Below, one piece after another: positions 11,018 through 47,346 of a stretch of 59,801 nucleotides of DNA. The notes beneath the pieces are model-generated. The model saw nothing but the letters and a program-made list of their open reading frames with translations, was not told where the DNA came from and searched no databases. Made by a program: the position numbers and the translations under genes. The DNA is from an uncultured Desulfatibacillum sp. (GTDB lineage: Bacteria > Desulfobacterota > Desulfobacteria > Desulfobacterales > SpSt-501). The DNA lies in contig CAZNAX010000004.1 of NCBI GenBank assembly GCA_964570965.1, positions 1-59,801 on the forward strand. The letters run 5' to 3'. Each line of letters starts with the position of its first letter. Position 1 is the first letter of the stretch.

Positions 11018-11045
11018 TTATCGGCCGACCCAGCGAAAAACTTTA
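11018..11045 (-). promoter_or_regulatory. Candidate sigma28 (FliA) promoter upstream of pilin
   Basis: TAAAGTTT-N12-GCCGATAA; both boxes match consensus, spacer 1 nt longer than the E. coli canon. Confidence 0.65.
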
Positions 11046-11083
11046 CCCAACAAAAATATTCGTATGGCGAGGGCCTGCGGCGC

Positions 11084-23952: not shown

Positions 23953-24714
23953 CTAGGCGGATGCGTCGTCGGCTCGTCCAACCGCGGCACCGGCGCTGCC
24001 GGATGATGCGGCCGACCGGTTGAAAAACTGAAGCTTCACCGATCCGATCGCGATGATATCCAGATCCCTCAGCATAACCGACTTCTTGATGGGCTGATCG
24101 TTAACCCGGGGCTTGCAAATCCCGCCGGCATAACTCAAGTAGTACCCGTCCGGCCGCTGACTGATGGTGGCGGCCGTCCAACCGACCAGCAACCCCTTGA
24201 CCACGATCTCGGAGGTCGGGGCCTTTCCGATTTTGATGAGCTTGCTGAAAAGATCCAGTTGGCCCTGGCCGCCGGACAAATACTCAAGATAGCCCGAGGC
24301 ATCGTCATGTCGCAGCAGCGGTTTCGGAACCACCGGAGCGCTTTTCTGCACCATCAAGCGGTAGTTGCTGGTATCCATCACCATGGTTTTGTCGATTTCA
24401 GCCGGAGTGCCGGCGGCGGCGTCCTCCTCGGTTGAAAAAACCAGAAAATGTTTTCCGATACTGACGATATCGCCATTTTTCAACCAATGGGAATTAACCA
24501 GGCGCTCGTTGACGAACGAACCGTTTTTGCTCTGAAGGTCCACCAGTACAAAGGCATCACCGACCGAATCGATCTTGGCATGATGCCCTGAGACCGCCAG
24601 GTTTTCGATGACGATGTCATTATCCTTGCGCCTGCCAATCGTCAGTGATTTGCCCTTGTCGACGAGATACCGGCCGAGAACGTTGTCTTTGAATTTGAGT
24701 GTAATGTTTGGCAT
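23953..24714 (-). CDS. Tandem FHA-domain protein
   Basis: FHA1 IGR..ND..VSGHHA..DLQSKNGS intact; FHA2 IGK..TS..VGWTAA degenerate; DKTMVM linker. Confidence 0.88.
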   Translation of the reverse strand: MPNITLKFKDNVLGRYLVDKGKSLTIGRRKDNDIVIENLAVSGHHAKIDSVGDAFVLVDLQSKNGSFVNERLVNSHWLKNGDIVSIGKHFLVFSTEEDAAAGTPAEIDKTMVMDTSNYRLMVQKSAPVVPKPLLRHDDASGYLEYLSGGQGQLDLFSKLIKIGKAPTSEIVVKGLLVGWTAATISQRPDGYYLSYAGGICKPRVNDQPIKKSVMLRDLDIIAIGSVKLQFFNRSAASSGSAGAAVGRADDASA

Positions 24715-24747
24715 TCGTAGCAATTTCCTGCAGACTTTCAAGCGATT

Positions 24748-25548
24748 TCAGTTAGCTGCTAGTCGCTGCCGCACCTGATAAACCCATTTTATGAAAACCG
24801 AGCGATGTTGGCGCCGCACGCCGGCCACTCGCAGAACGACGGCCGAAATATTGTCGTCACCGCCGCGTTCGTTGGCCAATTGCACCATCGCGCGACACGC
24901 GGAACCCGGAGGATGGGCGGTGGTGAGCGACATGATTTCCCGCGGCGCAACCTTGGTGCTCAATCCGTCCGAACAGATGACCAGTTGATCGTCCTTGAAG
25001 CAGTTCAATTCACAGATATCGGCCTCGACCAGGCTCTTCGGACCCACCGCGCGCGTCAGAATGTTGCCCATGGAGGGAACCTGCGCATCTGCCGGCAGCG
25101 CGGCCTGGAGGGTGTGGGGGACCGAGAGCAAATTAATCGTTCCGTTTCGCACCAGAAAGATCGGGCTGTCCCCTACGTTGGCCGCGATCACCGTGTCTTC
25201 GGAAAAATACACCGCGGCCACCGTTGATCCCATCCCGCGATAGTCGTCATGTTCGGTGGCGGTTTGGTGCACGACTCGGTTGGACCATTCGATTCCTGCC
25301 AGCAGTCGATGCGCCTGGGAAGAGAGGTTGCCAGGCAGGCCCGTATGGTTGTCTGGGTCCTGACCTTTGGCCAGAAAATCGCATATGGATTGCACGACCA
25401 AGGTGCTGGCGACTTCTCCGGCCCGGTGGCCACCCATTCCGTCGGCCACCAAATACAATCCCCGGGCATCATCGACAAGGATGCGGTCTTCGTTGGACTG
25501 CCTTTTCTTGCCAACGTCGGAAATGCCAGCTGATTCAACAATCACCAT
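24748..25548 (-). CDS. PP2C/Stp1-family Ser/Thr protein phosphatase
   Basis: DVGKKRQSNED, VADGMGGH, NVGDS, CSDGL, GGDDNIS. Confidence 0.93.
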   Translation of the reverse strand: MVIVESAGISDVGKKRQSNEDRILVDDARGLYLVADGMGGHRAGEVASTLVVQSICDFLAKGQDPDNHTGLPGNLSSQAHRLLAGIEWSNRVVHQTATEHDDYRGMGSTVAAVYFSEDTVIAANVGDSPIFLVRNGTINLLSVPHTLQAALPADAQVPSMGNILTRAVGPKSLVEADICELNCFKDDQLVICSDGLSTKVAPREIMSLTTAHPPGSACRAMVQLANERGGDDNISAVVLRVAGVRRQHRSVFIKWVYQVRQRLAAN

Positions 25549-25653: not shown

Positions 25654-25682
25654 TTGACAAAACCAAACGGTTTAAGTAGGTT
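25654..25682 (+). promoter_or_regulatory. Candidate sigma70 promoter for ihf-rec operon
   Basis: TTGACA-N17-TAGGTT. Confidence 0.6.
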
Positions 25683-25736
25683 TCGATCCACTCGACGTTA
25701 CGACCGAAACGTTTTTCACGCCTGGAACCGGCGCAC

Positions 25737-26030
25737 ATGACCCTGACCAAGGCCCAAATTGCGGATGTCATCCACCAGGATCTTGGTTTTCCCAAAAACC
25801 GGTCCGCCGAGGTTCTGGAGCTTCTGCTGGAGCTGATCAAGAACAAACTGGAGAATGGTGAAGACGTTCTCGTCAGCGGATTCGGAAAGTTTTGTGTCCG
25901 GTTGAAAAAAGAACGCCGGGGGCGGAATCCAGCGACCGGCCAAGACCTGCTCCTATCCGGCCGCAAGGTGATTACGTTCCGCTGCTCTCACTTGCTCCGA
26001 AAGAGAATCAACGACGATTTTCCCTCCTGA
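25737..26030 (+). CDS. ihfA: Integration host factor alpha-like subunit
   Basis: MTLTKA, VLVSGFGKF, GRNPATG, RKVITF. Confidence 0.88.
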   Translation: MTLTKAQIADVIHQDLGFPKNRSAEVLELLLELIKNKLENGEDVLVSGFGKFCVRLKKERRGRNPATGQDLLLSGRKVITFRCSHLLRKRINDDFPS

Positions 26031-26154
26031 AGCGGATCGCGTCAATCCTGGCTCTTAAATGCCGGTCATTGGGTTGAGCGCGGCCGGGTATGCCTTCGTC
26101 AGCAACACCGTTCGGCAGAAGAGGGCTTCCGCCATCATTCGTGGACAGAAACTC

Positions 26155-29100
26155 ATGTCGGGGTTTTTTATATTTACGAGCAACCGCATGGAGGCGTTGG
26201 TGGAACGCCTGGCGGAGGTGGTGCGAGCGCCCCTGTCCTCAGCCATGGCTCCCGAGGTCGTCATTGTCCAGAGCCGAGGCATGGAGCGCTGGTTGTCGAT
26301 GGAGCTGGCCCGCCTGAACGGCATCAGCGGAAATGTCCGGTTCCCATTCCCCAACGCTTTTCTGGAGACGGTGTTCCAAACCGTATCGGCCGTTGATCCG
26401 ACGGGGCCCTCAGCCTTCGACCCCGACGTCCTGGCTTTCCGCATCATGGGCTTCATCGGAGAGCATTCCGATCACCCCGATTTTGCGCCCTTGCGGCATT
26501 TTCTGGCGGGAGATTCGAAAGGGGGGAAGCGCTACCAGCTCGCGCGCAGGACCGCCGATCTCTTTGACCAGTACCTCGTTTTCCGCCCCGAGCTGATTGA
26601 TCGCTGGGAATCAGGGCAAATTCTAAATTCGACCCATCACCGCTGGCAGGCATTGATCTGGCGCGAGCTGGTGCGGCTCACACCGGGGGTGCACCGGATC
26701 TGTCGGCGTCGCCTGCTGGCCGAGGCCATTCGTAGAGGCGTCCACGGGTTGGCTGCGCTACCCCTACGGGTGTCGTTGTTCGGCGTCTCGTACCTTCCCC
26801 GATTTCACCTGGACATCTTCGCAGAGCTCTCCGGGGTCATCGATGTGCACGTGTTCTGCATGAACCCCTGCCGCGAATACTGGGCCGATATCGTCTCCGA
26901 ACGCGCCGTCCAAAAAGCTCAGCGGCGGATAGGAGAGAGCGAAAGCGTTGAGAGCCGCCTGCACCTGGAGCTCGGCAACCGGCTGCTGGCCTCGCTGGGG
27001 ACCCTCGGGCGGAATTTCTTAGACATCCTCACCGATTTTTCCGGCCAGCAGACCGACGTGTTTGTCGAGCCTGGCGGACAATCCCTTCTGGGCCGGATCC
27101 AGTCCGATATCCTGAACCTAAGAGACCCTCACCCGGACCCGGCGCCCTGCGCCGACGAATCCATACGGATTCACGCCTGCCACAGCCCCATGCGCGAGGT
27201 CGAAGTTCTGCAGGATCAACTGCTGGCGATGTTCGAGGCGGATCCGCAGCTGCAGCCCGACGACATCGTCGTCATGACCCCGGATATCGACGCCTACGCC
27301 CCCTTCATTTCAGCGGTGTTCGGCGCCCCGGCCAACCTCCGGCAGCACATCCCATTCGCCATCGCCGACCGCCGCCCCGACCGGGAAAGCGGCTGCCTTC
27401 GGGCCTTTTTCTTGCTGTTCGATCTCCTGGACAGTCGGTTCGGCGCCAGCGACGTGCTGCGCCTGCTGGAGGCCCCGGCGGTATTGAAGCGCTTCGGCCT
27501 GGAAAACGCCCATCGGCACCGTGTGGAGCAGTGGATCCGGGCGGCGCGCATCTGCTGGGGCGAGGACGAAGCCACCCAAATCGCACTGGGTCTTCCGGCG
27601 CATCCGCACAATACCTGGAGGGCCGGAATCGAACGTCTGCTTCTAGGCTATGCGCTGCCGTCCCGCGAAACCGAGGTGTTCCACGGAATTCGTGGCCATG
27701 ACGCCATCGAGGGCAGCGACGCACGCGTGATCGGCCCGTTCCTGGATTTCCTGGAGCAGGTGTTTGCCTTTTCCGGCCGGTTGCGCCGGGCCCGAGGGCT
27801 GGAGGAATGGCGCAGCGACATCCGTGATATGCTATCCGCCTTTTTTCCGGATGACGACGAAACTCAACCCGACCTGCAGCGCATCCGCCGGATGCTGGAT
27901 GAGATGGCCGACACCGCCGCAGCGGCCGGATTTACTACGGAAGTCTCTGCGGAAGTCGTGCGCGGGTTCCTGTCCGAGCGGCTCGAAGGGGAAGGCGCCG
28001 GCCGGGGGTTCATGGCGGGCGGGGTGACCTTTTGCGCCATGCTGCCAATGCGCTCCATCCCGTTCAAGGCGGTCTGCCTCATTGGAATGAACCATGATGC
28101 TTACCCCCGCGAAAGCCGGCTGCTGACCTTTGACCTGATCGGCCAGGCGCCGCGCCCGGGTGATCGTTCGCGGCGGGACGACGACAAATACCTCTTTCTC
28201 GAGTCGCTGCTGTCCGCTCGCCGCTGGTTCTACATCAGCTACGTGGGGCAGAGCATCCAGGACAACAGCCCCGTGCCGCCCTCCGTCGTCGTCAGCGAGC
28301 TTATCGATGTGCTCCAGTCGGGCTACGGTCTGGCCGCGGATGCTGCCGGCCGGGGCCTGGTCACCCGTCACCGGCTGCAGGCGTTTTCCAGCGACTATTT
28401 TCGGGAGGGGGCGGGCCTCTTCAGCTACTCCGCTGAGGACATGCAGGCGTGTGCCGCGGCGGCGGATGCCGCCGCACCCCAGCCGTTTGTGACCGGGCCG
28501 ATCCCATTGACGAACGAGGATGCGTCGTCCTGGAGCCGGTTGGACCTCGGACAGCTGGCAGTTTTCTTCGGGAACCCGGCCAGATTCCTCGTCCGGAACC
28601 GGTTGGCTGTGCGCCTCGATCCGCCGGAGGCGTCGGCGAAGGACAGCGAACCTTTTTCCCTGGAGGGGATCGAGCGGTTCGACATGGGCTGCCGCATGCT
28701 CGATCAGCGGCTGAGGGGCCTCCAACGCCGGGACGTTTTCCCGGCGCTGCGCGCCGACGGCCGACTGCCCCACGGGGCGATGGGCGAGGTGGAATTCAAC
28801 CGCCTATGGGCCGAGGTAGAAGGATTCGCCCGTCGTCTCGAGCCGCTGCGTCAGGCAGGCTCTCCGAAAATGATCGATACGCGGTGGGACATCGCCGGGT
28901 TCAGCCTGGCGGCGCGGGTTAACGGGGTGACGGACACCGGCTGCCTGCGCTACCGCTTCGGCAAGCTCCGCGCCAAGGACTATCTGGAACTTTGGCTGCA
29001 GCATCTGGCCCTCTGCCTGGCCGCCCCCGGGCAGGGCGAATGCGAAAGCGTTTACGTTTGCACCGACCGCACCCTGAGGCTGAGGCGGGTCCCGGACAGC

Positions 29101-29403
29101 CGGTCCATTTTGGAAGAGCTTCTGGGCATCTATCGGCAGGGCCTTGAGCGACCGCTGTGCTTTTTCCCGAAGTCATCGCTGGAGTATGCCCGCGTGCTGC
29201 GCACAACATCCTCCTCCCGCCGGGCGCTAGGATCTGCCCGCAGCATCTGGGACGGCAACGGGATCCAGGAGGGAGAAGGTGCGGACCCTTACTACCGGCG
29301 CTGTTTTGAAACCGACGATCCCCTGGGCGCGGAATTCGAGGAACTGAGCCGACGAGTATTTGATCCCCTTTTAGCGTTTGCCAAGAGCGAGAGACTGGCG
29401 TGA
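26155..29403 (+). CDS. recC: Exodeoxyribonuclease V gamma subunit
   Basis: SNRME.L, VQSRGMERWL, NPCREYW.DI, CHSPMREVEVL, VMTPDI, AMLPMRSIPF, RRDDDKYLFLE. Confidence 0.96.
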   Translation: MSGFFIFTSNRMEALVERLAEVVRAPLSSAMAPEVVIVQSRGMERWLSMELARLNGISGNVRFPFPNAFLETVFQTVSAVDPTGPSAFDPDVLAFRIMGFIGEHSDHPDFAPLRHFLAGDSKGGKRYQLARRTADLFDQYLVFRPELIDRWESGQILNSTHHRWQALIWRELVRLTPGVHRICRRRLLAEAIRRGVHGLAALPLRVSLFGVSYLPRFHLDIFAELSGVIDVHVFCMNPCREYWADIVSERAVQKAQRRIGESESVESRLHLELGNRLLASLGTLGRNFLDILTDFSGQQTDVFVEPGGQSLLGRIQSDILNLRDPHPDPAPCADESIRIHACHSPMREVEVLQDQLLAMFEADPQLQPDDIVVMTPDIDAYAPFISAVFGAPANLRQHIPFAIADRRPDRESGCLRAFFLLFDLLDSRFGASDVLRLLEAPAVLKRFGLENAHRHRVEQWIRAARICWGEDEATQIALGLPAHPHNTWRAGIERLLLGYALPSRETEVFHGIRGHDAIEGSDARVIGPFLDFLEQVFAFSGRLRRARGLEEWRSDIRDMLSAFFPDDDETQPDLQRIRRMLDEMADTAAAAGFTTEVSAEVVRGFLSERLEGEGAGRGFMAGGVTFCAMLPMRSIPFKAVCLIGMNHDAYPRESRLLTFDLIGQAPRPGDRSRRDDDKYLFLESLLSARRWFYISYVGQSIQDNSPVPPSVVVSELIDVLQSGYGLAADAAGRGLVTRHRLQAFSSDYFREGAGLFSYSAEDMQACAAAADAAAPQPFVTGPIPLTNEDASSWSRLDLGQLAVFFGNPARFLVRNRLAVRLDPPEASAKDSEPFSLEGIERFDMGCRMLDQRLRGLQRRDVFPALRADGRLPHGAMGEVEFNRLWAEVEGFARRLEPLRQAGSPKMIDTRWDIAGFSLAARVNGVTDTGCLRYRFGKLRAKDYLELWLQHLALCLAAPGQGECESVYVCTDRTLRLRRVPDSRSILEELLGIYRQGLERPLCFFPKSSLEYARVLRTTSSSRRALGSARSIWDGNGIQEGEGADPYYRRCFETDDPLGAEFEELSRRVFDPLLAFAKSERLA

Positions 29404-30557
29404 TGGAAAGCGGTTCGATCATAGGCATTCTGCGAAGCGTGCCGGAAACGGCCGCCCTGAAACCCGGAGACCGGCTGAACGTTAAGGTTTTGGAGGTCTT
29501 TGAAAACCAGCGCGCACTGGTGGACCTGGGTCGCTTCCGGGCGCTGGCCGATATCGCCTTCCCCGTGGCAGCAGGCGATGAGTTGCGGGTGCGGGTCCAG
29601 CAGACGGAGGGCCAGCTGCGGCTCCAGCTGCTGCCGGCTTCCGGTCCAGCTGCGCCCGAAGCCGCTGGCGCCGGCGGACCGGCGCGGGCGGCTTCGGCGG
29701 CAGCGCTCCAAACGGTTCATGTGCACATCGAGCAGCTGTCCGGTGCGATGCAGCGGCTGCCGAATGCGCCGCAGCTGCCGGCCGAATTCCGGCAAATGGT
29801 GGAAGCCTTGGGGATTTTTTTGAAGCCGCTCGATGCGGGTTCGCGCCCCGAGGCGCTGGCCCGCAAGCTCGGGGAATTCTGCGAGGATTCCGGGCTGTTC
29901 CTGGAACATCGGCTGGCAGGTGCCGTCAAGCGGACAGACGGCGAAGCCGGAGGGAAGTCGGCGCCGGAGTGTGGATCGGCGGGGGGATCGGAACGAATTC
30001 TGGCAACCGACCTCAAGTCCCGACTGCTTTTTCTTAAAGCCTTTTTTCAAAGCGAAGTCGGCCGGCAACTGATCCGTGACAGCCGGGAAGCGGCCGGCCT
30101 GGCTGGAGCGGCCGGTGAGCTGCTGGCCGATATCCGCGCCGGCCAGGAGCAGTTGACTCAGCCGGCCGGCGCGTCACACCCTTTCCAGATGGTGCATTTT
30201 GACCTGCCCATGGCGGGCGAACGTTGCCAGGCGGAATTGAAAATCGCCTATGCCCGGCGGGCGGGCGGCCGCAGGGATGAGGGGTATCGTGCAGCGATCC
30301 TGCTTGAACTCGATCAAATGGGAGCGGTCCGCGCCGATCTCATCCTGCAGGGCCATCGTCTTAACGTGTCCGTCTTTGTTTCCAACGCCCGGATGCGGGA
30401 TCTGGTCAACCGGCACGCGCCCGAGGTGCAACACGCACTGGCACCGTTTTTTGAACACGTAACCTTTCAAGTGTCGGTTTCGTCCCGGAAAATTGCCGGA
30501 TTTTTGAGCGAGGATTGGCGGTCCGCGGGTGAAACCCAAGTGGATGTGCGCGTATGA
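29400..30557 (+). CDS. FliK-like (flagellar hook-length control C-terminal domain) protein
   Basis: C-terminal LELDQMGAVRADL..LNVSVFV..LV..H..EV..AL; N-terminal small beta barrel; followed by FlhB_C gene; GTGA overlap with recC. Confidence 0.7.
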   Translation: MMESGSIIGILRSVPETAALKPGDRLNVKVLEVFENQRALVDLGRFRALADIAFPVAAGDELRVRVQQTEGQLRLQLLPASGPAAPEAAGAGGPARAASAAALQTVHVHIEQLSGAMQRLPNAPQLPAEFRQMVEALGIFLKPLDAGSRPEALARKLGEFCEDSGLFLEHRLAGAVKRTDGEAGGKSAPECGSAGGSERILATDLKSRLLFLKAFFQSEVGRQLIRDSREAAGLAGAAGELLADIRAGQEQLTQPAGASHPFQMVHFDLPMAGERCQAELKIAYARRAGGRRDEGYRAAILLELDQMGAVRADLILQGHRLNVSVFVSNARMRDLVNRHAPEVQHALAPFFEHVTFQVSVSSRKIAGFLSEDWRSAGETQVDVRV

Positions 30558-30829
30558 AACCGGAAAAGCCGATCCGAGCCGTAGCCCTGCGGTACGATCG
30601 CACCCAAAACGGAGCTCCCCGAGTGGTCGCCAAGGGCCGGGGGCAAGCGGCGGAAAACATCATCGCCCTCGCCCGGGAGCACGGGGTGCCGCTGCATGAA
30701 GATTCAAATCTGGCGGCCACGTTGAGCGCCCTTGATATCGAAACGGAGATCCCACCGGAGCTTTACCGGGCGGTGGCGGAAGTCCTGGCATTCATCTACC
30801 GATTGAACGGGAAGCACCCCCGGCCTTGA
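30554..30829 (+). CDS. Stand-alone FlhB C-terminal (EscU/YscU/HrcU, FlhX/YlqH-like) protein
   Basis: AVALRYD..GAPRVVAKG.G..AE.II.LA.EHGVP..ED, EIPPELYRAVAEVLAFIY. Confidence 0.92.
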   Translation: MKPEKPIRAVALRYDRTQNGAPRVVAKGRGQAAENIIALAREHGVPLHEDSNLAATLSALDIETEIPPELYRAVAEVLAFIYRLNGKHPRP

Positions 30830-33800
30830 CGCCCTTCGACCTCATTCGCACCCCCTTGAAGGGGGCCAGCCTCATCGAGGCGGCGGCCGGCACCGGCAAG
30901 ACGTTCACCATCGAGGGACTTTACGTCCGGCTGGTGCTCGAAAAGCAGCTGCCTGTCGAGCAGATCCTCGTGGTGACGTTCACCCGCGCGGCCACCGCCG
31001 AGCTGCGGGATAGGATCTACAAGCGCCTGGCCAAAGCGCGTGACGCTTTTGCCGGAGCCCCCGTCGACGACGACGAGCTCCTGCGACAGCTGGCTGCCGG
31101 CCACGTCAACCCCGTCCAGGCGGGGCGCCTGCTGCGCCAGGCGCTGATGGATTTCGACCGCGCTGCCATTTACACGATCCACGGGTTTTGCCAGCGGGTG
31201 CTATACGAAAACGCGTTCGAGACCGCCAGCGCTTTCAATGCGGAACTGCTCCGGGACCAGACCCCGATCCTGGTCGAAGTGGTGGAGGATTTCTGGCGCC
31301 GGTGGGTTTGCGGCCAAGCGCCGGAGTTCCTGCAATGGGCCCAAGGCACCCTGGGTGACCCGGGCTGCCTGCTGGAACTGGCCTGGAAATCGACCGCGGC
31401 TGAATTCGCGGTGACCCCCCGGCGTGATGAGCCTTGCCTGCGGGCCGCAACGCTTGATGCCTTTCGACAGCGGCGGCAAGAACTCGCGGCATGTTGGCGC
31501 GCCGGCCGCGACGATATCCGCCGCATTCTCATGAATGCGCCGCTGAACGGCGTTCGGTTCGGCAGCCTGACGCCCGGGGAAGGCGGCGGGCCGTCGGGGC
31601 GGGAGCGGGTCGTCCGGGGATTGGTCGATGCCATGGATGCTACCTGCGCGCACGAATCCTCCGATTTCCCGCCGGTGGCCGCGGTCTTGAAGCTAAGCTC
31701 GTCCCATCTTGCCCGCGCGACGCTCCGCCGCCGGCAGGCTCCGTCCCACTCGGTCTTCGACGCCTGCGAGGCGCTTCATCGGGCCGCACAGGCGCTGGCT
31801 CCGGAAATGACCGGGCAGCTGCACTATCTCAAATCGCGCTTGCTCGACGTTGTGCCAGCCGACTTGGAACGGCGCAAGTCCGAAAAGGGGTGGGTGTCCT
31901 TCGACGATCTGCTGCGGCGGCTGGCCCGGACGCTGGACACCGGCAGGGGCGAAGCGCTGGCCGATGCCGTGCGCCGGCGTTATCAGGCCGCACTGGTGGA
32001 CGAGTTCCAGGACACCGACGATCTCCAGTACGCTGTGTTCTCGCGGCTGTTTTCATCGCCGCACCACCTGCTCTTCATGATCGGCGACCCCAAGCAGGCC
32101 ATCTATGGATTTCGCGGGGCGGATATTTTTTCCTACCTACGCGCCGCCCAGGGAGCCGACGCGCGTTTCACCCTCATCCGCAACTGGCGGTCTTCACCCG
32201 GTCTGGTGCAGGCGGTCAACACGCTTTTTTCGCAATCGGCCGCGCCCTTTCTTTTTCCCGGGATCGACTTCGTCCCGGGCCAGGCCGCCCGGGACGAAGC
32301 GACAGCGATGGCGGCGGAGCCTGCGATGATCATCTGGCACTTAGATTCCCGACCGCACCGCGACGACGGCAAAGCCCTGACCAAGCCGCATGCGCAAGCG
32401 CTGATCGCCCGTGCCGTGACCCTGGAAATCCAGCGGCTGACCGCGTCCGGCCCCGCCGCCGTCCGGACCGGCGACATTGCCGTACTGGTGCGGACCAACA
32501 GCCAGGCCGCGTTGATGAAAGCGCATCTCTCTGCGGCCAGGGTCCCTTCGGTCATCTACAGCACGGCCAACGTGTTCGACTCGACCGATGCCCACGAACT
32601 GCTGGCCGTGCTATCCAGCATCGCCGAACCCCAGAGCGCGTCTAAACTGAAAACGGCGCTGGCCACTCATCTGCTGGGCCTTTCCGCCGGCGAAATCGCC
32701 GCCGGAGACCGGGCCGAGGATTCATGGGAGCCGCGCATCCGGAGGCATTGGGAGTATTTCCGCCTGTGGCACGAACGCGGGTTTCCATCCATGTTCCGGC
32801 AATTCCTGTCCGGTGAGGCGGTGAAGCGGCGCCTTCTCTGCCTGCCGGACGGCGAGCGCCGTCTGACCAACCTTCTGCACCTGGCCGAGATTGTCCACCG
32901 TGCCGCCGGTGAGGAAAACCTCGGTCTGGCCGGTCTGGTGACGTGGCTTGCCCGTCACGTCGATCCCCACGCGCAACGCTCCGAGGAAACCCAGCTGCGA
33001 CTGGAAAGCGATGAGCTCGCCGTCAAGATCGTCACCGTCCACCGCAGCAAGGGGCTGGAATATCCGGTGGTGTTTTGCCCGTTCGCCTGGTCCGGTTCCG
33101 CTTTGCGGGGCGGCGATGTCTTTTATCACGATCCCGCGAACGGTAATCGCCTGACGGCCGACATCAGCGGCGATATGGATTCGCCCCACCGGCTCCGCGC
33201 CCAAAACGAGATCCTGGCCGAAAATCTAAGAATGCTCTATGTTGCCGTGACCCGCGGGCGGGAGCGCTGCTATCTCGCCTGGGGCCGGATCAACTCCGCC
33301 GAAACATCGGCGCTGGCCTACCTGTTGCGCTCTGACGCCTCGGCGACGGACGCCGCCCTCGAAAGCGACTGGATCGGGCGGCTGAGGAAAGAATTCAATT
33401 CCATCGGAGACGATGAGGTTCGGAGCCGGCTGGACGATCTCGCCGCCGCCTCGGACGGCGCCATCGTGATCCGCCGGCTGCCGGAGCAGCCGCCATCGAA
33501 AAGCGCGGATGAAGCCCGGGTGTCCCTTCAGCTAGCCTGCCGCGAATTCCGCGGAACGATCGACCGCACTCGGTCCCTGACCAGCTATTCCGCTCTCGCG
33601 GCGGCAGGCCCCGCCGAAACACCGGACCGCGATGGCGGTTACCCGGCGGTGGCCGGCGGAGCCCCGGCGCAGGATTCCCGCCCCGCCGCCGCCGACGCCA
33701 ACGGTATGGCAGATTTCCCGACGGGCGCGCGGGCCGGTACGTTTTTTCACTCTATCTTCGAAACGATCGATTTCACCCGACCGGTTTGCCGGACGGTCGT

Positions 33801-34446
33801 TTCCCGAAAGCTCAGGGAGTTCGGATTCGAGCCGTCCTGGACGGAACCCGTCTGCCGCATGATCGCCGAAGTTCTTGAGGTGCCGCTGTTCGCCGGTGCA
33901 TCTGCGGTGCGCCTGGCCGAGGTGGGCCTCAGCCGGCGGGTCAGCGAGATGGAATTCTACTTCCCGCTGAACCTGGTGACTCCGGCGCTCCTGGAAGAGG
34001 TTTTCGCGCGCTACGGGACACCGCCGGCATTTGAGGAAACGCCGATGGCCGCCGGCATCGAGCCCCTGCACTTCGCGCCGACGCGCGGCTTTATGAAAGG
34101 CTTCATCGACCTGGTATTCGAACACGGCGGGCGGTACTACCTGGTTGACTGGAAATCGAATCGTTTGGGCGCAGCGCCGGAAGCATATCACCGCAACCAA
34201 CTGCGCGCCGTGATGTGCGAGCATCGCTACGACCTGCAGTATCACATCTACACCTTGGCGTTGCACCAGTACCTGCGATGGCGAGTTCGCGGCTACGAGT
34301 ATGCTCGAGACTTCGGCGGGGTATGCTATGTTTTTCTGCGCGGAGTCAGCTGCGATTACGGGCCGGATTACGGGCTTTTCTGCAACCGGCCCGAACCCCG
34401 GCTGGTCCACGCGTTGGGAGAGGCGCTGATACCGGACTATGTCTGA
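30826..34446 (+). CDS. recB: Exodeoxyribonuclease V beta subunit
   Basis: AAAGTGKT, VVTFTRAATAEL, VDEFQDTD, IGDPKQAIY.FRGAD, TVHRSKGLEY, GFIDL..LVDWKSN nuclease; TTG start. Confidence 0.97.
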   Translation: MTPFDLIRTPLKGASLIEAAAGTGKTFTIEGLYVRLVLEKQLPVEQILVVTFTRAATAELRDRIYKRLAKARDAFAGAPVDDDELLRQLAAGHVNPVQAGRLLRQALMDFDRAAIYTIHGFCQRVLYENAFETASAFNAELLRDQTPILVEVVEDFWRRWVCGQAPEFLQWAQGTLGDPGCLLELAWKSTAAEFAVTPRRDEPCLRAATLDAFRQRRQELAACWRAGRDDIRRILMNAPLNGVRFGSLTPGEGGGPSGRERVVRGLVDAMDATCAHESSDFPPVAAVLKLSSSHLARATLRRRQAPSHSVFDACEALHRAAQALAPEMTGQLHYLKSRLLDVVPADLERRKSEKGWVSFDDLLRRLARTLDTGRGEALADAVRRRYQAALVDEFQDTDDLQYAVFSRLFSSPHHLLFMIGDPKQAIYGFRGADIFSYLRAAQGADARFTLIRNWRSSPGLVQAVNTLFSQSAAPFLFPGIDFVPGQAARDEATAMAAEPAMIIWHLDSRPHRDDGKALTKPHAQALIARAVTLEIQRLTASGPAAVRTGDIAVLVRTNSQAALMKAHLSAARVPSVIYSTANVFDSTDAHELLAVLSSIAEPQSASKLKTALATHLLGLSAGEIAAGDRAEDSWEPRIRRHWEYFRLWHERGFPSMFRQFLSGEAVKRRLLCLPDGERRLTNLLHLAEIVHRAAGEENLGLAGLVTWLARHVDPHAQRSEETQLRLESDELAVKIVTVHRSKGLEYPVVFCPFAWSGSALRGGDVFYHDPANGNRLTADISGDMDSPHRLRAQNEILAENLRMLYVAVTRGRERCYLAWGRINSAETSALAYLLRSDASATDAALESDWIGRLRKEFNSIGDDEVRSRLDDLAAASDGAIVIRRLPEQPPSKSADEARVSLQLACREFRGTIDRTRSLTSYSALAAAGPAETPDRDGGYPAVAGGAPAQDSRPAAADANGMADFPTGARAGTFFHSIFETIDFTRPVCRTVVSRKLREFGFEPSWTEPVCRMIAEVLEVPLFAGASAVRLAEVGLSRRVSEMEFYFPLNLVTPALLEEVFARYGTPPAFEETPMAAGIEPLHFAPTRGFMKGFIDLVFEHGGRYYLVDWKSNRLGAAPEAYHRNQLRAVMCEHRYDLQYHIYTLALHQYLRWRVRGYEYARDFGGVCYVFLRGVSCDYGPDYGLFCNRPEPRLVHALGEALIPDYV

Positions 34447-36262
34447 TCGAATCGAGAACAAACTGTTTTCAGCCCTCGACCTGCACTTCGCCAGGTTCAT
34501 CAGCCGCTTCGGCGGAGCAGACACCGAGAGCCTGTACCCGGCAGCGGCGCTGGTCAGCCGCGCTACCGGCAACGGCGACGTCTGCCTGGATCTCCAAGCC
34601 TGGGCGGGAAAACCAGTCGATGGCCTACCGGGGGCGGCGGCGTGCCCGCCCGCGGACCGCTGGGCCTCCGCCCTGGGCACCTGCCCGGCGGTCGGGCGCC
34701 CGGGGGAGCGCCGGCCGCTGGTGCTGGACGAGGGCAACCGCCTCTACCTTTACCGCTACTGGGAATACGAAAACCGCCTGGCCGCCCGCATTCTAGAGCG
34801 CGCCGGCTGCCCGCCGGAGCACCTCGACCCCGCGTGCCTGCAGGCTGCCATCCGGTGTAATTTCGCCGACGGCGGACCGGAGACCGACTGGCAGGTGGTG
34901 GCCGTTGCCGTGGCTCTGCTCAAGCGCTTTGCCGTGATCACCGGCGGGCCGGGAACCGGCAAGACCACGACGGTCGCCAAGATCATCTCCGTGTGGGAGG
35001 ATATACACCAGGGGCGGTCGACCCGCGTGCTGCTGGCCGCGCCCACCGGCAAAGCCGCGGCCAGACTCAAGGAATCCCTGCGGCAGCGTCCGGCGCGGCC
35101 GGTGCGGACAGACGGCTGCGGTCCACTGCCGCCGCACGAGGTTTACACTCTGCATCGCCTTCTCAGGCCCGTGCCCGGCACCCCCCTGTTCCGCCACAAC
35201 GCCGAGAACCCTCTGCCGGTCGACCTGATGATCGTCGACGAAGTCTCCATGGTCGATCTGGCCCTTATGGCCAAGCTGGTGGACGCGCTGCCCGGATCGG
35301 CCCGACTGGTGCTGATCGGTGACAGAGACCAGCTCGCATCGGTGGAGGCCGGTTCGGTGTTGGGAGACATCTGCGGCCGGACGCACCGCCCGGGGTTCTC
35401 ACCTGAGTTCGGGGATTTGATTCGGCGCGTGACCGGTCAGGTCGTCCCCATCCAATCGGACCGCCGTCCGCTGCAGGATAGCATCGTAGAGCTGCAGACC
35501 AGCCATCGGTTTTCCGCCGACAGCGCCATCGGGGCCCTCAGCCGGGCTGTGAACCAGGGCGATGCGCCTGGCACGCTGGCCATTCTGGCGCGGACCGCAG
35601 ACGGAGCCCTCACCTGGCAGGAGCCGCAGCCCGGGCGCAACGGCATGGCCGAGTTGGAACAGCACCTGACGGCAGGCTACGCGGCGTACCGGGCACAGGG
35701 GGACCCCCACCGAATCCTGCAGGAACTCGGCCGGTTCAAGGTGCTCTGCGCCCACCGGGCCGGTTTCAACGGCGTGGAGGCGGTCAACCGGCTGGTGGAG
35801 CGGGTTCTGATGCGTCAGGGGAAAATCCGGATCAACCCGCGCCGCAGCAGCCCCTGGTATTCCGGCCGTCCGATCCTGGTCACCCAGAACGACTACAGTC
35901 TGGGGCTTTTCAACGGAGACATCGGAGTCACCCTGAGCGATTCGGCCGAGATCCCTGAACGTCTGGCCGTCTTTTTCGCGGATGCGGCCGGAGGCCTGCG
36001 CCGCTTCCTGCCGTACCGCCTGCCCGAACACGAAACGGTTTACGCCATGACGGTGCACAAAAGCCAGGGGTCTGAATTCGAAGACGTGCTGCTGATCCTG
36101 CCGGCCGAGGACTCTCCGGTGCTTTCCCGTGAACTATTATACACCGCCCTGACCCGGGCGCGGAAGCGTTTTACACTCTTCGGTCGGCGTGAGGTTCTCA
36201 CGACCGCCATTCACCGCCGCATCGAGCGCACCTCAGGTCTGCGCGAAGCGCTCTGGGGGTAG
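34439..36262 (+). CDS. recD: Exodeoxyribonuclease V alpha subunit
   Basis: GGPGTGKTT, LAAPTGKAAARL, VDEVSMVD, GDRDQLASV, NGDIG, MTVHKSQGSEF. Confidence 0.97.
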   Translation: MSDRIENKLFSALDLHFARFISRFGGADTESLYPAAALVSRATGNGDVCLDLQAWAGKPVDGLPGAAACPPADRWASALGTCPAVGRPGERRPLVLDEGNRLYLYRYWEYENRLAARILERAGCPPEHLDPACLQAAIRCNFADGGPETDWQVVAVAVALLKRFAVITGGPGTGKTTTVAKIISVWEDIHQGRSTRVLLAAPTGKAAARLKESLRQRPARPVRTDGCGPLPPHEVYTLHRLLRPVPGTPLFRHNAENPLPVDLMIVDEVSMVDLALMAKLVDALPGSARLVLIGDRDQLASVEAGSVLGDICGRTHRPGFSPEFGDLIRRVTGQVVPIQSDRRPLQDSIVELQTSHRFSADSAIGALSRAVNQGDAPGTLAILARTADGALTWQEPQPGRNGMAELEQHLTAGYAAYRAQGDPHRILQELGRFKVLCAHRAGFNGVEAVNRLVERVLMRQGKIRINPRRSSPWYSGRPILVTQNDYSLGLFNGDIGVTLSDSAEIPERLAVFFADAAGGLRRFLPYRLPEHETVYAMTVHKSQGSEFEDVLLILPAEDSPVLSRELLYTALTRARKRFTLFGRREVLTTAIHRRIERTSGLREALWG

Positions 36263-36409
36263 CTGCGGCCGGCGACCCTCGATCGGCGCTTCCAAGACGA
36301 AAAACTTCGCTGCTCCAAGAGCGGCTTGCGGCGGCCATATTTACCCGCTGCGCCGGGTGTGCTATTTTTGAACCAGCGATGGGCCATCGATGCATACAAG
36401 GAAACCAGA

Positions 36410-36925
36410 ATGATGAACGCTGGCATTAGAACAGGCATCGGGTTTGATTTCCACCGGCTGGTTGCGGGCCGCTCGCTCGTTCTGGGCGGAGTCCCGATTC
36501 CCTATGAAAAGGGACTCTTGGGTCATTCCGATGCGGATGTGTTGGTCCATGCCATTTGCGACGCCCTGCTCGGGGCCGGTGGTCTGGACGACATCGGCAT
36601 TCACTTCCCGGACAGCGATCCTGCCTACCAGGGGATTTCCAGCCTGGAGCTTCTAAGAAGGACCTGCACGCTCATCGCCGCCGACGGATTCCGGATCGTC
36701 AACGTAGATGCCGTCGTGCTGGCCGAAGCGCCCCAGATCATGCCGTTTCGCCGCGAGATATCGAGCCGGATTCTTCAGGCCATGCAGATCGCTGCCCCGC
36801 AGGCTTTCAATCTCAAGGCCACAACCACCGAAGGCTGCGGAATGATCGGGCGCGGAGAGGGAATCGGCGCCATGGCCACCGCGTTGATCGAACGCCGGCG
36901 GGCGGATCGGCACGGGGGGGCATGA
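36410..36925 (+). CDS. ispF: 2-C-methyl-D-erythritol 2,4-cyclodiphosphate synthase
   Basis: GIGFDFH, GHSDADV..HA..DALLGA, DIG.HFP, KATTTEG. Confidence 0.96.
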
Positions 36926-38916
36926 GCGCTTTTCAGCTGAAGTCCGCGTTCGAGCCGGCCGGCGACCAACCGTCCGCCATCGAAGCGCTCTACCGGCACC
37001 TGGCCGCCGGCCGAAAGCACAGCGTTCTTTTAGGGGTCACCGGCTCCGGCAAGACCTTCACGATGGCGCAGGTCATCGCACGGATCAACCGCCCGACGCT
37101 CGTGATTGCACCGAACAAGACCCTGGCGGCCCAGCTCTACAGCGAATTCCGCCTGCTGTTCCCCGATAATGCGGTCGAATATTTCGTCAGCTACTACGAC
37201 TACTACCAACCGGAGGCCTACATCCCGACTTCGGACACTTACATCGCCAAGGATTCCTCCATCAACGACATGATCGACAAGCTGCGGCACTCCGCCACGC
37301 GCTCCGTCCTATCGCGCCGCGATGTGCTGGTGGTGGCGAGCGTTTCCTGTATTTACGGTCTCGGCGCTCCGGAAGACTACCTGTCCATGCGGGTGGAGAT
37401 CGAGGCCGGTGCCGAGTTCAGCCGAGAACAGCTGCTGGCTGATCTCGTCGCCATGCATTATGAACGCAAAGATCATGATTTCTTTCGGGGAACCTTCCGG
37501 GTGCGGGGAGACCGCGTCGAAATTTTTCCAGCCTACGAAGAAGACCGGGCCGTCCGGGTGGATTTTTTCGGCGACACGGTGGAGGGCGTCGCCGAGATCG
37601 ATGCCCTGCGCAACACGGTCCTGCGTCGACTCCAGCGCGGCGTCATTTTTCCGGCCAGCCACTACGTCACCCAGAAGACCACCCAGCAAAAGGCCATGCA
37701 GACCATCCGCACCGAGCTGAGCCGCCGCATTGATTTTTTTCGCGACCAAGGCAAGCTGCTGGAGGCGCAGCGGATCGAGGAGCGCACGCATTTCGACCTG
37801 GAGATGATTCAAGAGTTGGGCTATTGCAACGGCATCGAAAACTACTCCAGACACTTGACCGGCCGCCGGGCGGGGGAGCCGCCGCCGACCCTGCTCGATT
37901 ACTTTCCGAGGGATTTTCTGCTGTTCATCGACGAGAGCCACATCGCCGTGCCCCAGCTCCGGGGGATGTACCGCGGGGATCGCTCGCGCAAGGAAACTCT
38001 GGTGGCGTACGGCTTCCGTCTGCCGTCGGCCCTGGACAACCGGCCGCTGATGTTCGAAGAGTCGCAGTCCCGCTTCAACCAGGTGGTCTACGTTTCCGCC
38101 ACCCCGGCGGAGCATGAGATGCGCCGATCGGGGGATGCCGTCGTCGAGCTCATCGTGCGGCCGACGGGACTGGTCGACCCCGTGATGGAGGTCCGCAGCG
38201 CACGCCACCAGGTCGACGACCTGCACGATGAAATCCGCATCCGGCAACAGCGCCGCGAGCGCGTGCTGGTGACCACCCTCACCAAGCGCATGGCGGAAGA
38301 CCTTACCGAATACTATGCGGACCTCGGGCTCAAGGTCCGCTACCTGCATTCGGACATCACCACCCTGGAGCGCATGGACATCATCCGGGATCTGCGGCTG
38401 GGACACTTTGACGTCCTGGTGGGCATCAACCTGCTGCGCGAAGGCCTCGACATCCCCGAAGTGTCCCTGGTGGCCATTCTGGACGCAGACAAAGAGGGAT
38501 TCCTGCGATCGACCCGGTCGCTCATTCAGACCTGCGGCCGCGCGGCGCGCAATGCCAACGGGCTGGTCATTCTCTACGCCGACAGGGTCACCCCCTCGAT
38601 GCAGCAGACCATCGACGAAACCAACCGCCGCCGCCAGATTCAACATGCTTACAATCAGGCCCACGGCATCACGCCCACATCGGTGCACAAGGCGATCGCC
38701 GGGGCCTTCGATTTCGCCGCCGGACCGCTGGCGCCGACGGCCGGCCGGGTCGGCGAAGAACCTGCTGTCTATGATTCCCTGGACGAGGTCGACGCCGAGA
38801 TCCGCCGGCTCGAAAACCAGATGCATCAGGCGGCCAAGGAGCTGGATTTCGAACGGGCGGCCGAGCTGCGGGACCGCATCCTGGGCTTGCAGCGGCTGAT
38901 CGTTCTGGAGACATGA
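36922..38916 (+). CDS. uvrB: Excinuclease ABC subunit B
   Basis: [63 protein letters not shown] domain. Confidence 0.98.
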
Positions 38917-40778
38917 ACGCGCCTTCGCAACCGCCGCCGCCCGCCGCCCCTGCCCAGAAGGCGGCCGCCGCCCCCTTGGAACCCGGTGTCTACCTGATGA
39001 AGGCGGCCGACGGCCGAATCTTGTATGTCGGCAAGGCGCGCAGTCTTCGCAAGCGCTTGTCGGCCTATTTCAAAACAAGCACTCATTCCGGCTCCAAGAT
39101 CCATGCGCTGGTGGCGCGGATCGCCGACATCGAGATCATCCTGACCCGCACCGAAAAAGAAGCTCTCATCCTCGAGTCCAACCTCATCAAGCGCCACCGG
39201 CCCCGCTTCAACGTGGTCCTCAAGGACGACAAGCGCTACCCCTCCCTGCGGCTGGATCCGAAAGAAGCCTATGCCCGCTTCAGCGTCGTGCGGAAGATCG
39301 GCGGGGATGAGGCGCTTTATTTCGGACCATTCGCCTCCGCGCAGGCCGTGCGCGCAACCCTCAAGGTGCTCAACCGAACCTTCAAACTGCGCAAGTGCAA
39401 GGCGAACGAATTCCGCACCCGCACCCGGCCCTGCCTGCACTGTCAGATGAACGGCTGTCTGGCGCCCTGCTGTCGGGATGTCGCCCCCGAGGTCTATCGT
39501 GAACACGTTCAGGAGGCGGTTCTCTTCCTGAAGGGACGCACCCAGGAGCTGCTGGGAAAGATTCGCGGGGATATGGAGGCGGCTGCCGCTGCTCAGGAAT
39601 ATGAAAAGGCGGCGCGGCTGAGGGACAAGCTGTTTGCGTTGCAGCGGACTACCGAGAAACAGGTTGCGGTGACCACCGACTTTATGGACCGGGACGTCTT
39701 CGCGGCGGCTTCCGCCGATGGCGCCGCCGTGATCACCTATCTGGAGGTTCGCGGCGGCTTTTTGACAGGCTCCCGCCACTTCGGCTTTCCCGAGAGCATG
39801 GCTGCCGAAGATGAGATGCTGGGCGTTTTCATCCGCCAGTTTTACGAGGACCGTGCGCTGGTGCCGGGGGAGCTTTTCGTGTCGCATGCGCTCGATGACC
39901 AGGAGTGGATCGAGCAATGGTTGACCGCACAGAAAGGCAAGCGGGTGCAGATTCACCGGCCGGAGCGCGGCGAAAAGGCACGCTTGCTGGAGATGGCCTT
40001 GAACAACGCCCGCACGGAACTCGACGCTCTGCTGTCCCGACGCTCCAGCGGGGCCGCGCTGTTGTTGCGGCTGCAACGTCGTCTGGAGCTCTTGCGCTGT
40101 CCGCAGCGCATCGAATGTGTCGACAACTCGACCCTCATGGGATCAGACCCCGTGGCCGGCCTCGTGGTGTTTGTGGACGGCCGGCCGGAACCGGCCGCCT
40201 ACCGCCGATACCGGATCACCGGCGTGGCCGTGCCGGATGATTATGCGTCCATGTCGGAGATTCTAAGGCGCCGACTGGGAAAGGGGCCGGCATCCGAGCC
40301 GTTTCCCGACCTGTTGATGGTGGACGGCGGCAAGGGGCAACTCGGCACGGCCATGGCGGTCATGAAGGATTTGCAAATCGAAGGGCGCATGGATGTCATC
40401 GGGATCGCCAAAAAGGACTCGGAGCGGGGGGAGGTGCAAGACAAAATTTTCCTCCCCGGACGGTCGAATCCGGTAAATTTCGGCCGCGAGGGCGATCTGC
40501 TGCTTTTTCTCCAGCGCATACGGGACGAAGCGCACCGCCACGCCGTTGCCTTCCATCGACGACGGCATCGGGCGACCGTCCTGACATCGGCGCTGGACGC
40601 GATCCCCGGCGTCGGCAAGGTGCGCAAAGCCCAGCTGATCGATCATTTCGGCAGCTTTGAAGCGATCCGGGCAGCACCGCTCGCTGAACTGAGCGCGCTG
40701 CCCGGTTTCAATCGGAAACTGGCCGAAGCGGTGAAGGCTGTACTTGGCTCGGACCTTGACGGCCGGAACGCAACGTGA
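38913..40778 (+). CDS. uvrC: Excinuclease ABC subunit C
   Basis: PGVYLM..YVGKA GIY-YIG, four-Cys cluster, [28 protein letters not shown], HhH. Confidence 0.97.
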
Positions 40779-42052: not shown

Positions 42053-42661
42053 ATGGCTGTCGTAAATCTCAAGAAGCACCAGATCGAGTGCAAGATCGTC
42101 TACTATGGTCCGGCGCGGTGCGGCAAGACCACCAACCTGGAATATATCCATCGGACCTTCTCCCAGCATGTCCGGGGGCAAATGATCTCCATTGATACCG
42201 AGGGGGATCGGACCTTGTTTTTCGATTTCTTGCCGCTGGAACTTGGAAAGGTCAAAGGGTGCGATGTGCGCGTGCAGCTTTACACCGTGCCGGGACAGGT
42301 CCGGTACGCCTCCACCCGCAAGCTGGTCCTCCGCGGGGCGGACGGAGTGGTTTTCGTTGCCGACTCGCTTGAGGTGCGGCGTGAACAGAATATGTTGGCG
42401 TTGAAGGACCTTCAACAGAATCTGCGGGACTACCATCTGAGCATTTTTAAACTCCCATTGGTGATGCAGTTCAACAAACGCGATTTGGCCGAAGCCGATA
42501 TCCCGCTGATGCCGATCGAGCAGATGGCCCACGAGTTGAACCGCCAGCTGAAAGCGCCTGCTCTGCCGGCGGCGGCCCTGAACGGGAAGGGGGTCGGCAA
42601 GACACTGCAGGAATGCCTTCGGCTCGTGCTGCGCAAGCTTCAGCAGGAGTTGAATTTTTGA
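42053..42661 (+). CDS. mglA: MglA-family small GTPase
   Basis: KIVYYGPARCGKTTNL, DRTLFFDFLPL, QLYTVPGQV, GADGVVFVADS, QFNKRD. Confidence 0.9.
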   Translation: MAVVNLKKHQIECKIVYYGPARCGKTTNLEYIHRTFSQHVRGQMISIDTEGDRTLFFDFLPLELGKVKGCDVRVQLYTVPGQVRYASTRKLVLRGADGVVFVADSLEVRREQNMLALKDLQQNLRDYHLSIFKLPLVMQFNKRDLAEADIPLMPIEQMAHELNRQLKAPALPAAALNGKGVGKTLQECLRLVLRKLQQELNF

Positions 42662-42715
42662 ACGCCTCGGATCCCCCCGCCAACAAGGGCGTGAGCCCGC
42701 CTGCGTGCGAACTTT

Positions 42716-47337: not shown

Positions 47338-47346
47338 GGACGTCCG

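Follow-up and report, generated by a model that had tools for sequence, protein, structure and literature searches.

How do two genes that resemble the substrate-specificity switch of a type III export apparatus come to lie inside a recC-recB-recD operon, and what might they do there? The question is raised by a contig of an uncultured Desulfatibacillum sp. from the Desulfobacterota (CAZNAX010000004.1, assembly GCA_964570965.1), of which we analysed a stretch of 59,801 nucleotides, referred to as the window. According to the list of open reading frames (ORFs) and the sequence itself it carries five consecutive genes on the + strand, namely recC, a FliK-like gene that we call X, flhX, recB and recD. 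We could confirm that the position of X-flhX inside recC-recB-recD is real, conserved and ancient. The five genes are:

26059-29403, + strand: recC, exodeoxyribonuclease V gamma subunit (TIGR01450 966 bits, cut-off 583; PF04257, PF17946)
29400/29403-30557, + strand: X, FliK2-like, 385 aa from GTG 29400 or 384 aa from ATG 29403 (PF02120 29.2 bits)
30554-30829, + strand: flhX, stand-alone FlhB_CC, 91 aa (PF01312 E 8e-24; TIGR00789 104 bits)
30826-34446, + strand: recB, exodeoxyribonuclease V beta subunit (TIGR00609 890 bits, cut-off 696)
34439-36262, + strand: recD, exodeoxyribonuclease V alpha subunit (TIGR01447 524 bits, cut-off 310), with an 8-nt overlap with recB

All three rec genes exceed the curated NCBIfam cut-offs and lie on the same strand in one operon, as is expected for RecBCD, and the N-terminus of RecB (MTPFDLIRTPLKGASLIEAAAGTGKT) agrees with that of its relatives. 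Along the series from recC to recD the genes overlap by 4, 4, 4 and 8 nt, with the junction letters GTGA (recC/X), ATGA (X/flhX) and TTGA (flhX/recB), the start codon of recB being the TTG inside the flhX stop. An initial sequence-only reading of this DNA had proposed exactly this gene order and these start/stop overlaps. Its gene identities were borne out by the Pfam and NCBIfam matches and by the match of X to the fold of the type III secretion substrate-specificity switch (T3S4) domain, and its overlaps agree with the ORF list and the sequence. As start of X, ATG 29403 (TGATG, 1-nt overlap with recC) appears more likely than GTG 29400, since the homologues begin with MEIGS... and the corresponding database cluster is 384 aa long. 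The same overlaps recur at 10 related loci within the subclade of the window, which excludes a chance pattern of ORFs as well as an artefact of the assembly. GC content and GC content at third codon positions (GC3, 0.69-0.72) of X and flhX are within the range of their neighbours, and a horizontal insertion of the cassette could be ruled out by uniform GC and skew and by GC3 values inside the range of the window.

In order to follow the arrangement through related bacteria, species-representative genomes were scanned, which resulted in 25 loci, and the gene order at these loci was read by tblastn with the proteins of the window as queries. The order recC-X-flhX-recB(-recD) was present at every locus of this set with enough flanking sequence except three, to which we return below; counted by species-level MAGs, 22 of 25 have the pair between the two rec genes. 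Further loci were obtained from more distant X representatives, and an alignment of the deepest X branch, branch D, was used for a metagenome scan that returned eight loci. The groups are as follows:

Clade A (the window and about 9 species): recC/X overlap of 4 or 1 nt (one locus with a gap of 1 nt), flhX/recB overlap of 4 nt, recB/recD overlap of 8 nt
Clade B (2 species, L003/L027 and L012): X 7 nt behind recC, flhX/recB overlap of 4 nt
Clade C (about 14 species): an extra gene for a 127-aa FHA-domain protein between recC and X, flhX-recB gaps of 22-431 nt
L035: order FHA-X-flhX-recB
L037 (branch D): X-flhX-recB, with thiC and hemN upstream and not recC

X-flhX-recB was found in all four branch D loci with a downstream flank (L039, L040, L043 and L044), two of them including recD as well (L039 and L043), and the ATGA overlap of flhX and recB is present in two branch D loci. 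Sequences with X-flhX beside recB include CAVOWH01, CAVQTH01, JAUQXK01, JACRCN01, CAWAUC01, JASFNW01 and GCA_041559255.1, and for branch D the contigs Ga0209270_1000127 and Ga0210123_1000192. recC was not found in the upstream flanks (3.6-7 kb) of L037, L039 and L043, nor behind recD in L039 and L043. As branch D keeps X-flhX-recB-recD without recC nearby, the constant neighbour of X-flhX is recB, and the idea that the pair is merely trapped between recC and recB could be ruled out. The depth of this linkage can be read from the pairwise identities of RecB:

RecB, clade A to clade B: 50%
RecB, clade A to clade C: 45%
RecB, clade B to clade C: 47%
RecB, clade A to branch D: 39%
RecB, clade C to branch D: 41%
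RecB, any clade to E. coli RecB: 32-34%

The grouping ((A,B),C),D that follows from these values agrees with the groups of X, which argues for a long co-inheritance of X and RecB. The linkage to recB is therefore ancient and mostly vertical, carried since before the four deep lineages, all uncultured and of sulfate-reducer type, diverged. Synteny across relatives had been named at the outset as a check for an arrangement unique to this genome; with the pair adjoining recB in four deep lineages this is not the case, and a single-genome oddity is ruled out by the recurrence in relatives. Over the recB-linked loci of the 25-locus set FlhX is the best conserved protein with 64-95% identity (52-95% if the branch D loci are included), compared to 43-81% for RecB and 28-70% for X. 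All recB-linked cases can stem from one ancient event followed by vertical descent in one phylum-level group, and as one such event suffices they count as one observation and not as repeated convergence. In a neighbour-joining tree of X the members from other contexts fall between the rec-context groups, with deep-node bootstraps of 2-37 or none, which are too weak to resolve independent insertions.

The pair also occurs away from recB. The three exceptions within the 25-locus set are L024, L026 and L030, whereas L031 and L035-L038 derive from the more distant X representatives. X-flhX is located near HDOD/HD genes in L024 and L026, where these genes lie just upstream of the pair (48-1610 and 1578-2975, respectively), flanked by genes for a cytochrome c3 and an S49 peptidase in L030 and L032, and in front of an RND efflux operon in L036. 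A long variant of X without flhX is followed by a Ser/Thr kinase gene in L031, and X has no adjacent flhX in L038. Since at least four lineages carry the pair away from recB, X-flhX is an autonomous unit.

What the two proteins resemble is clearest for FlhX. It matches PF01312 (FlhB/YscU family) only at the profile positions 262-335 of 335, that is the last 74, and chains of FlhB_CC in the PDB (3b1s_B and 3b0z_B) with E-values of about 1e-12, the PDB chains of FlhB overall ranging from 1e-12 to 2e-8. The best NCBIfam model is TIGR00789 (flhB_rel) with 104.2 bits, which is below the cut-off of 117.35; as it is the best-scoring model and 79 of its 84 positions are covered, FlhX looks like a divergent member of TIGR00789 and not like a non-member. 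Residue 9 of FlhX pairs with residue 274 of FlhB, directly after the N269|P270-T-H autocleavage loop, and from there both proteins are aligned to the end. FlhX has neither the NPTH motif nor a membrane domain, its N-terminus being MKPEKPIR in place of NPTHY, and it retains the typical sequence motifs of FlhB_CC. It is thus a short protein of the expected size (about 80-95 aa) whose start corresponds to the autocleavage site of FlhB and which lacks the membrane domain.

X is more complex and can be divided into four parts:

29418..29630, + strand: N-terminal five-stranded beta-barrel, OB/S1-like (AlphaFold2, Foldseek, faint Pfam S1 matches)
29679..30158, + strand: helical spacer (AlphaFold2 helices; repeated in long relatives)
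30183..30497, + strand: T3S4-like domain (Foldseek, PF02120)
30480..30554, + strand: conserved C-terminal tail (ending motif of the family, FlhB alignment)

X matches PF02120 (Flg_hook) at residues 294-348 with 29.2 bits, slightly under the cut-off of 29.8 (29.5 bits with the C-terminal third alone), and the same family is precomputed on many X homologues. An AlphaFold2 (AF2) model of whole X from an alignment of 25 sequences had a modest overall predicted local distance difference test (pLDDT) value of 60 and showed a beta-rich part (residues 7-77), helices of low confidence (94-253) and an alpha/beta C-terminal domain (262-366) with a pLDDT of 80-88. Among PDB structures the Foldseek search with this last domain gave as best match the substrate-specificity (SS) domain of PscP (5cuk; probability 1.0, E 1.7e-3) with a root mean square deviation of 1.8 A over 67 columns and a TM-score to the target of 0.60, and the C-terminal domain of FliK (2rrl) matched as well (probability 0.98). 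As modelled, the C-terminal domain of X carries the T3S4 fold.

The N-terminal domain, which includes a VDxGxFRALA motif, is the most conserved part of X in the alignments and was modelled alone with a pLDDT of 76. Its Foldseek matches are weak and non-significant (E 0.2-0.7), and nearly all of them are oligonucleotide/oligosaccharide-binding (OB) folds, including IF1, the S1 domains of RNase II and the exosome, the OB domain of the proteasomal ATPase and the cold-shock domain. No Pfam family was found above threshold for the N-terminal domain or the spacer, only faint sub-threshold matches to S1/OB families, and a sequence profile search against the PDB returned designed helical bundles only. 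We therefore describe the N-terminal domain as OB/S1-like, which we infer mainly from the predicted fold.

As a family X is large. We compiled 110 full-length homologues of about 385 aa with 27-72% identity, gap-poor and with conserved motifs, all from metagenomes or from metagenome-assembled genomes (MAGs) of Desulfobacterales or 'delta proteobacterium', and when 1.84 billion representative proteins were searched with a profile, 258 clusters scored E<1e-30 and 1829 scored E<1e-3. Long relatives of 1000-1873 aa keep the N- and C-terminal domains and contain the helical module in 5-9 tandem copies (P0236, P0248 and P0284), and one long member, among these three and P0245, has the OB-like N-terminal domain in triplicate. 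This variation in the length of the helical repeats is ruler-like. In L031, the only long variant whose context was read, neither flhX nor recB is adjacent. At the other extreme, the X of one clade A MAG (L028, 6001-6955) is about 67 residues shorter (317 aa) with intact flanking genes, possibly due to an internal deletion or an assembly problem.

The C-terminal tail of X led us to a structural idea about the pair. All members of the X family, in every branch, end with [VIL]-D-[VIL]-x-[VIA]-stop (...VDVRV-COOH in the window), and the invariant residues of the tail (K364, I365, F368, E371/D372 and D382) are located outside the T3S4 match. Once FlhX is preceded by the 45 C-terminal residues of X, Salmonella FlhB can be aligned across the junction, with DVRV|MKPEKPIRAVALRYD in X and FlhX opposite DVIVTN|PTHYSVALQYD in FlhB. 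We compared two profiles of 15 joined X-FlhX sequences, the second of which had the tail reversed and served as control. Relative to this control the native tail raised the score by +0.6 to +3.5 bits on 11 of 11 PDB chains containing CN (FlhB, YscU and PscU), on which its alignment extended 10-25 residues further upstream, and by exactly 0 on the chains that contain CC only. As the effect is small and the PDB chains are mutually related, this gives weak support to the view that the tail of X is equivalent to the strand of FlhB_CN which directly precedes the NPTH autocleavage site. X and FlhX together would then look like a pre-split FlhB_C with its switch partner tethered. Most likely, the tail strand of X would take the place of FlhB_CN, and X and FlhX would fold as a soluble heterodimer, which would be obligate and would mimic auto-cleaved FlhB_C with the T3S4 domain permanently on the same chain. 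No precedent for such a split FlhB_C in a fliK-like/flhX pair was found in the literature searched, and a pre-split FlhB_C formed by strand complementation offers a concrete structural hypothesis for what the FliK2-FlhX pair is. X and flhX are typically spaced by -4 to +13 nt, with about 45 nt in two branch D loci (up to +47) and 199 nt in L036. A programmed frameshift or read-through that fuses X to FlhX was ruled out, as the frame of the junction varies among the clades (-4, -1, +2, +3, +13 and +44).

Is the pair expressed together with the rec genes? Upstream of recC two further elements have to be considered:

25654..25683, + strand: promoter-like 30-mer (TTGACA...TAAGTAGGTTT; in full TTGACAAAACCAAACGGTTTAAGTAGGTTT), 54 nt upstream of hup
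25737..26030, + strand: hup, HU-type DNA-binding protein (PF00216 E 5e-24), with a conserved position in clades A and B

The window contains a single match to a degenerate form of the 30-mer with three variable positions, against 0 expected, and 7 loci of clades A and B have it at the corresponding place, where it was kept while the surrounding intergenic sequence diverged. hup ends 28 nt before recC, and the gap between the two is 23-28 nt in clade A. As the promoter-like element precedes hup and hup ends this close to recC, the likely transcript is hup-recC-X-flhX-recB-recD with the 30-mer as its probable start, its promoter function being suggested by sequence and conservation. No sigma-70-like promoter was detected on the + strand between 25400 and 36800. 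The organism occurs in samples of freshwater sediment or soil. In public metatranscriptomes from wetland and soil, one contig spans recC/X (29364-29509, 0 mismatches), another one flhX/recB (30642-30916, 1 mismatch), and parts of X are covered as well. These contigs are few, short and of low depth, they carry no strand information, DNA carry-over is possible and the X/flhX junction lies outside their coverage, so that their support for co-transcription is thin. Two metatranscriptome contigs skip about 50-60 nt of recB (32018-32081) or replace them by a different stretch of 86-101 nt, which suggests a variable segment among related strains.

The start of recB itself has only a weak and distant Shine-Dalgarno (SD)-like sequence, GGGAAG, which ends 11 nt upstream of the TTG. 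Because of this weak SD and the TTG start within the TTGA overlap it is reasonable to assume that RecB translation depends on the termination of flhX translation, and overlaps of the ATGA/GTGA/TTGA type between flhX and recB recur in clades A, B and part of branch D. The sequence-only reading had offered, as one of its two explanations, a domesticated insertion by which the translation of RecB has become coupled to the inserted genes. This fits the TTGA overlap, the weak SD, the recurring overlaps and the junction-spanning contigs, but it does not hold as a general rule, as the coupling is not universal and clade C has gaps of 22-431 nt at this position.

The genes around the operon are mostly of the housekeeping type. 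To the left are guaA, efp, genes for an FHA-domain protein and a PP2C phosphatase, and hup, to the right ispF, uvrB, uvrC, mdh, a Ras-like GTPase gene, purC and a ParB-like gene, followed by genes for a spore-photoproduct-lyase-like protein and a staphylococcal nuclease (SNase), fusA and dxs. The two genes upstream of hup are divergent neighbours that are kept in clades A and B:

23953-24741, - strand: FHA-domain protein, 262 aa (Pfam)
24748-25548, - strand: PP2C phosphatase (Pfam)

The 127-aa FHA protein of clade C is a different one; in all clade C loci (7337-7720 in L004) and in L035 (14-370) its gene separates recC from X. FHA/PP2C genes are thus possibly associated with the locus. The right flank is rich in repair genes, with ispF, uvrB and uvrC directly after recD (36326-40778), and ParB-like, spore-photoproduct-lyase-like radical SAM and staphylococcal-nuclease-like proteins are encoded in a row at 45227-48018. 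Behind the Ras-like small GTPase gene, a protein with DUF4388 and a cyclic-nucleotide-binding domain is encoded (42053-43909 for the two genes together). Farther left there are a gene for an HDOD-GGDEF-receiver protein (15368-17245, - strand) and a cluster resembling those of type IV pili and type II secretion systems (T2SS; 6398-12598), with a T2SSE ATPase with MshEN (6398-8230), T2SSF (8223-9440), a pilin-like protein with N-methylation motif (9462-10346, - strand) and a secretin (11084-12598, - strand); E. coli recC is likewise preceded by prepilin-like genes, ppdC and ygdB. Branch D has a neighbour of its own, a small protein of 144-177 aa that is divergently encoded from X (L037 2835-3269, L043 6293-6727 and L039 6397-6930, all on the - strand), with an internal duplication whose halves each end with CQLG[LA]F and no significant family match.

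What, then, is the pair doing beside recB? We lean, with slightly less than even confidence, towards X-flhX being a fliK2-flhX-type export accessory which was captured long ago in the recB operon, is co-transcribed and translationally coupled with it, and is not a DNA-repair factor. It would serve a type III (flagellar) export apparatus as an accessory, as Helicobacter FlhX and Pseudomonas fliK2-flhX do, and it would have been captured, comparable to E. coli ptrA, by a recB operon that is expressed constitutively and at a low level. The cassette would be transcribed with hup-recC and recB-recD from no internal promoter, and ribosomes ending recC, X and flhX would re-initiate at the next gene, tying RecB synthesis to flhX translation. 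Such a captured accessory is supported by the homology of the pair to switch proteins, by what has been published on FlhX, by the ruler-like repeats, by the contexts without rec genes and by the ptrA precedent. Several observations weigh against it. There is no flagellar, chemotaxis or type III secretion system (T3SS) gene in the 59.8-kb window, and in about 10 distinct X contexts (±10 kb of the relatives) no flagellar neighbour was found, the only recurrent neighbours being recB/recD and FHA genes; X is thus not encoded with flgD/flgE or other flagellar genes in these contexts as is typical for FliK. The N-terminus of X is predicted to be folded, whereas that of canonical FliK consists of a disordered export signal and a ruler. 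Finally, the linkage to recB in clades A, B and C (plus L035) and branch D, with RecB identities from 50% down to 39%, is deeper than expected of a neutral passenger, and it outlasts both the change of the upstream context in branch D and the loss of the overlap in clade C.

The second explanation of the sequence-only reading was a link of double-strand-break repair or terminus status with type III export switching. The depth of the recB association argues for some link, against which stand the switch-protein homology, the other contexts and the ptrA precedent; none of the observations relates to terminus status. X-FlhX might accordingly be a genuine accessory or regulatory module of RecB or RecBCD, built from type III switch parts that were exapted in a large uncultured group of Desulfobacterota, an explanation that we consider rather unlikely but still a serious competitor. 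The OB/S1-like domain could then act, e.g., on single-stranded DNA or on a RecBCD subunit, and the T3S4/FlhB_C-like heterodimer could serve as protein-protein clamp or switch, possibly with control by Ser/Thr phosphorylation via FHA and PP2C. Besides the long co-inheritance of X-flhX-recB in four deep branches and the neighbourhood of recB even without recC, such a role would be in line with the overlap coupling to recB in clades A, B and part of branch D, the FHA gene that separates recC from X in clade C and the FHA/PP2C neighbours of the locus in clades A and B, the OB-fold-like domain, the repair-rich neighbourhood with hup, uvrB and uvrC, and the lack of flagellar neighbours. Yet there is no known biochemical connection, and the literature searched contained no link between FlhB, FlhX or FliK-like proteins and RecBCD (a paper on Geobacter names flhB and recB, but only as two distinct hotspots of mutation). 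FlhX moreover keeps the typical FlhB_CC motifs, at least four related lineages keep the pair off recB and L031 and L038 have X without adjacent flhX, the recB-linked cases are a single evolutionary observation in which the X tree cannot resolve independent insertions, the E. coli operon offers ptrA as precedent, and the OB assignment is based on non-significant Foldseek E-values. RecBCD is also a hub of phage-host conflict, and the tight and ancient linkage to recB together with the variable-length, repeat-rich relatives of X would suit a guard or defence module that monitors RecBCD, e.g. by sensing phage-encoded RecBCD inhibitors. We regard this as very improbable, as neither X nor FlhX nor the FHA proteins have a PADLOC match, which rules out a known defence system, the pair contains no effector-like domain (nuclease, toxin or membrane protein), FlhX with 52-95% identity is unlike fast-evolving defence genes, and the locus with its uniform composition is located among housekeeping genes. 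That X and flhX are decaying remnants or mis-called ORFs kept as a spacer for recB expression is effectively refuted by the sequence comparisons. X does score below the Pfam cut-off and FlhX below that of TIGR00789, but over 100 full-length homologues, which show few gaps and keep their motifs at identities of 72% down to 27%, the 258 clusters at E<1e-30, the conservation of FlhX (64-95% where RecB has 43-81%), the confidently predicted folded domains and the transcript fragments all contradict it. Some of the probability we assign to none of these explanations. If X-flhX is indeed a captured passenger, it would be a case of long-term operon hitch-hiking in which the dosage of RecB is set by the translation of an unrelated gene. 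If it is a RecBCD accessory, it would be the first sign of a new one and of a new regulatory layer of double-strand-break processing, often with an FHA gene. RecBCD is among the best-studied repair machines, and to our knowledge no accessory of such a kind is known.

How does the locus compare with known systems? Within the flagellar gene set FlhX and FliK2 are widespread, but what they do is obscure. In Pseudomonas putida fliK2-flhX (PP_4328-PP_4329) form a FliA-dependent operon that is part of the flagellar gene set, and FlhX from Helicobacter pylori (HP1575) can partly substitute for FlhB_CC (bioRxiv 10.1101/2021.08.29.457346). The flhX-fliK pair is typically found outside the main flagellar cluster, e.g. 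in Nitratiruptor (PMC9321776), and FlhX has been counted among the proteins of the flagellar T3SS and used as a query (PMC10746217). Like these pairs, including that of the Campylobacterota and FlhX/YlqH from Bacillus subtilis, the locus in the window combines a T3S4 gene with a gene of about 90 aa for FlhB_C without membrane domain, and as usual for them no flagellar cluster surrounds it. Different from them is that the pair is embedded in, and probably coupled to, recC-recB-recD, that this is conserved across deep lineages, and that X has an OB/S1-like N-terminal domain. X-flhX thus seems to be a variant of the fliK2-flhX type whose operon context is new and unexplained, and its linkage to recB is seemingly unreported.

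With regard to the proteins, the closest comparison is auto-cleaved FlhB_C, YscU_C or EscU_C together with the T3S4 domain of FliK, YscP or PscP (3b0z, 3b1s, 2jli, 5cuk and 2rrl), in which FlhX would correspond to CC and X to T3S4 plus the CN strand. Unlike there, X and FlhX have no NPTH and no autocleavage, the 'cleavage' being the gene boundary, and unlike FlhB they have no transmembrane domain, so that their complex would be soluble. In real type III systems FliK meets FlhB_C transiently, whereas the T3S4 and the FlhB_CN-like parts are on one chain in X. For the operon, the counterpart is recC-ptrA-recB-recD of E. coli K-12, in which an unrelated gene, not known to act in recombination, is also located between recC and recB and the 3' end of ptrA overlaps recB by 8 nt; a passenger with a translational link to recB can therefore be accommodated between recC and recB. 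As far as is known, ptrA is restricted to enterobacteria and close relatives. In contrast to ptrA, a single gene for a periplasmic protease, the passenger in the window is a two-gene module resembling a type III switch, and it is linked to recB even without recC nearby and down to a RecB identity of 39%.

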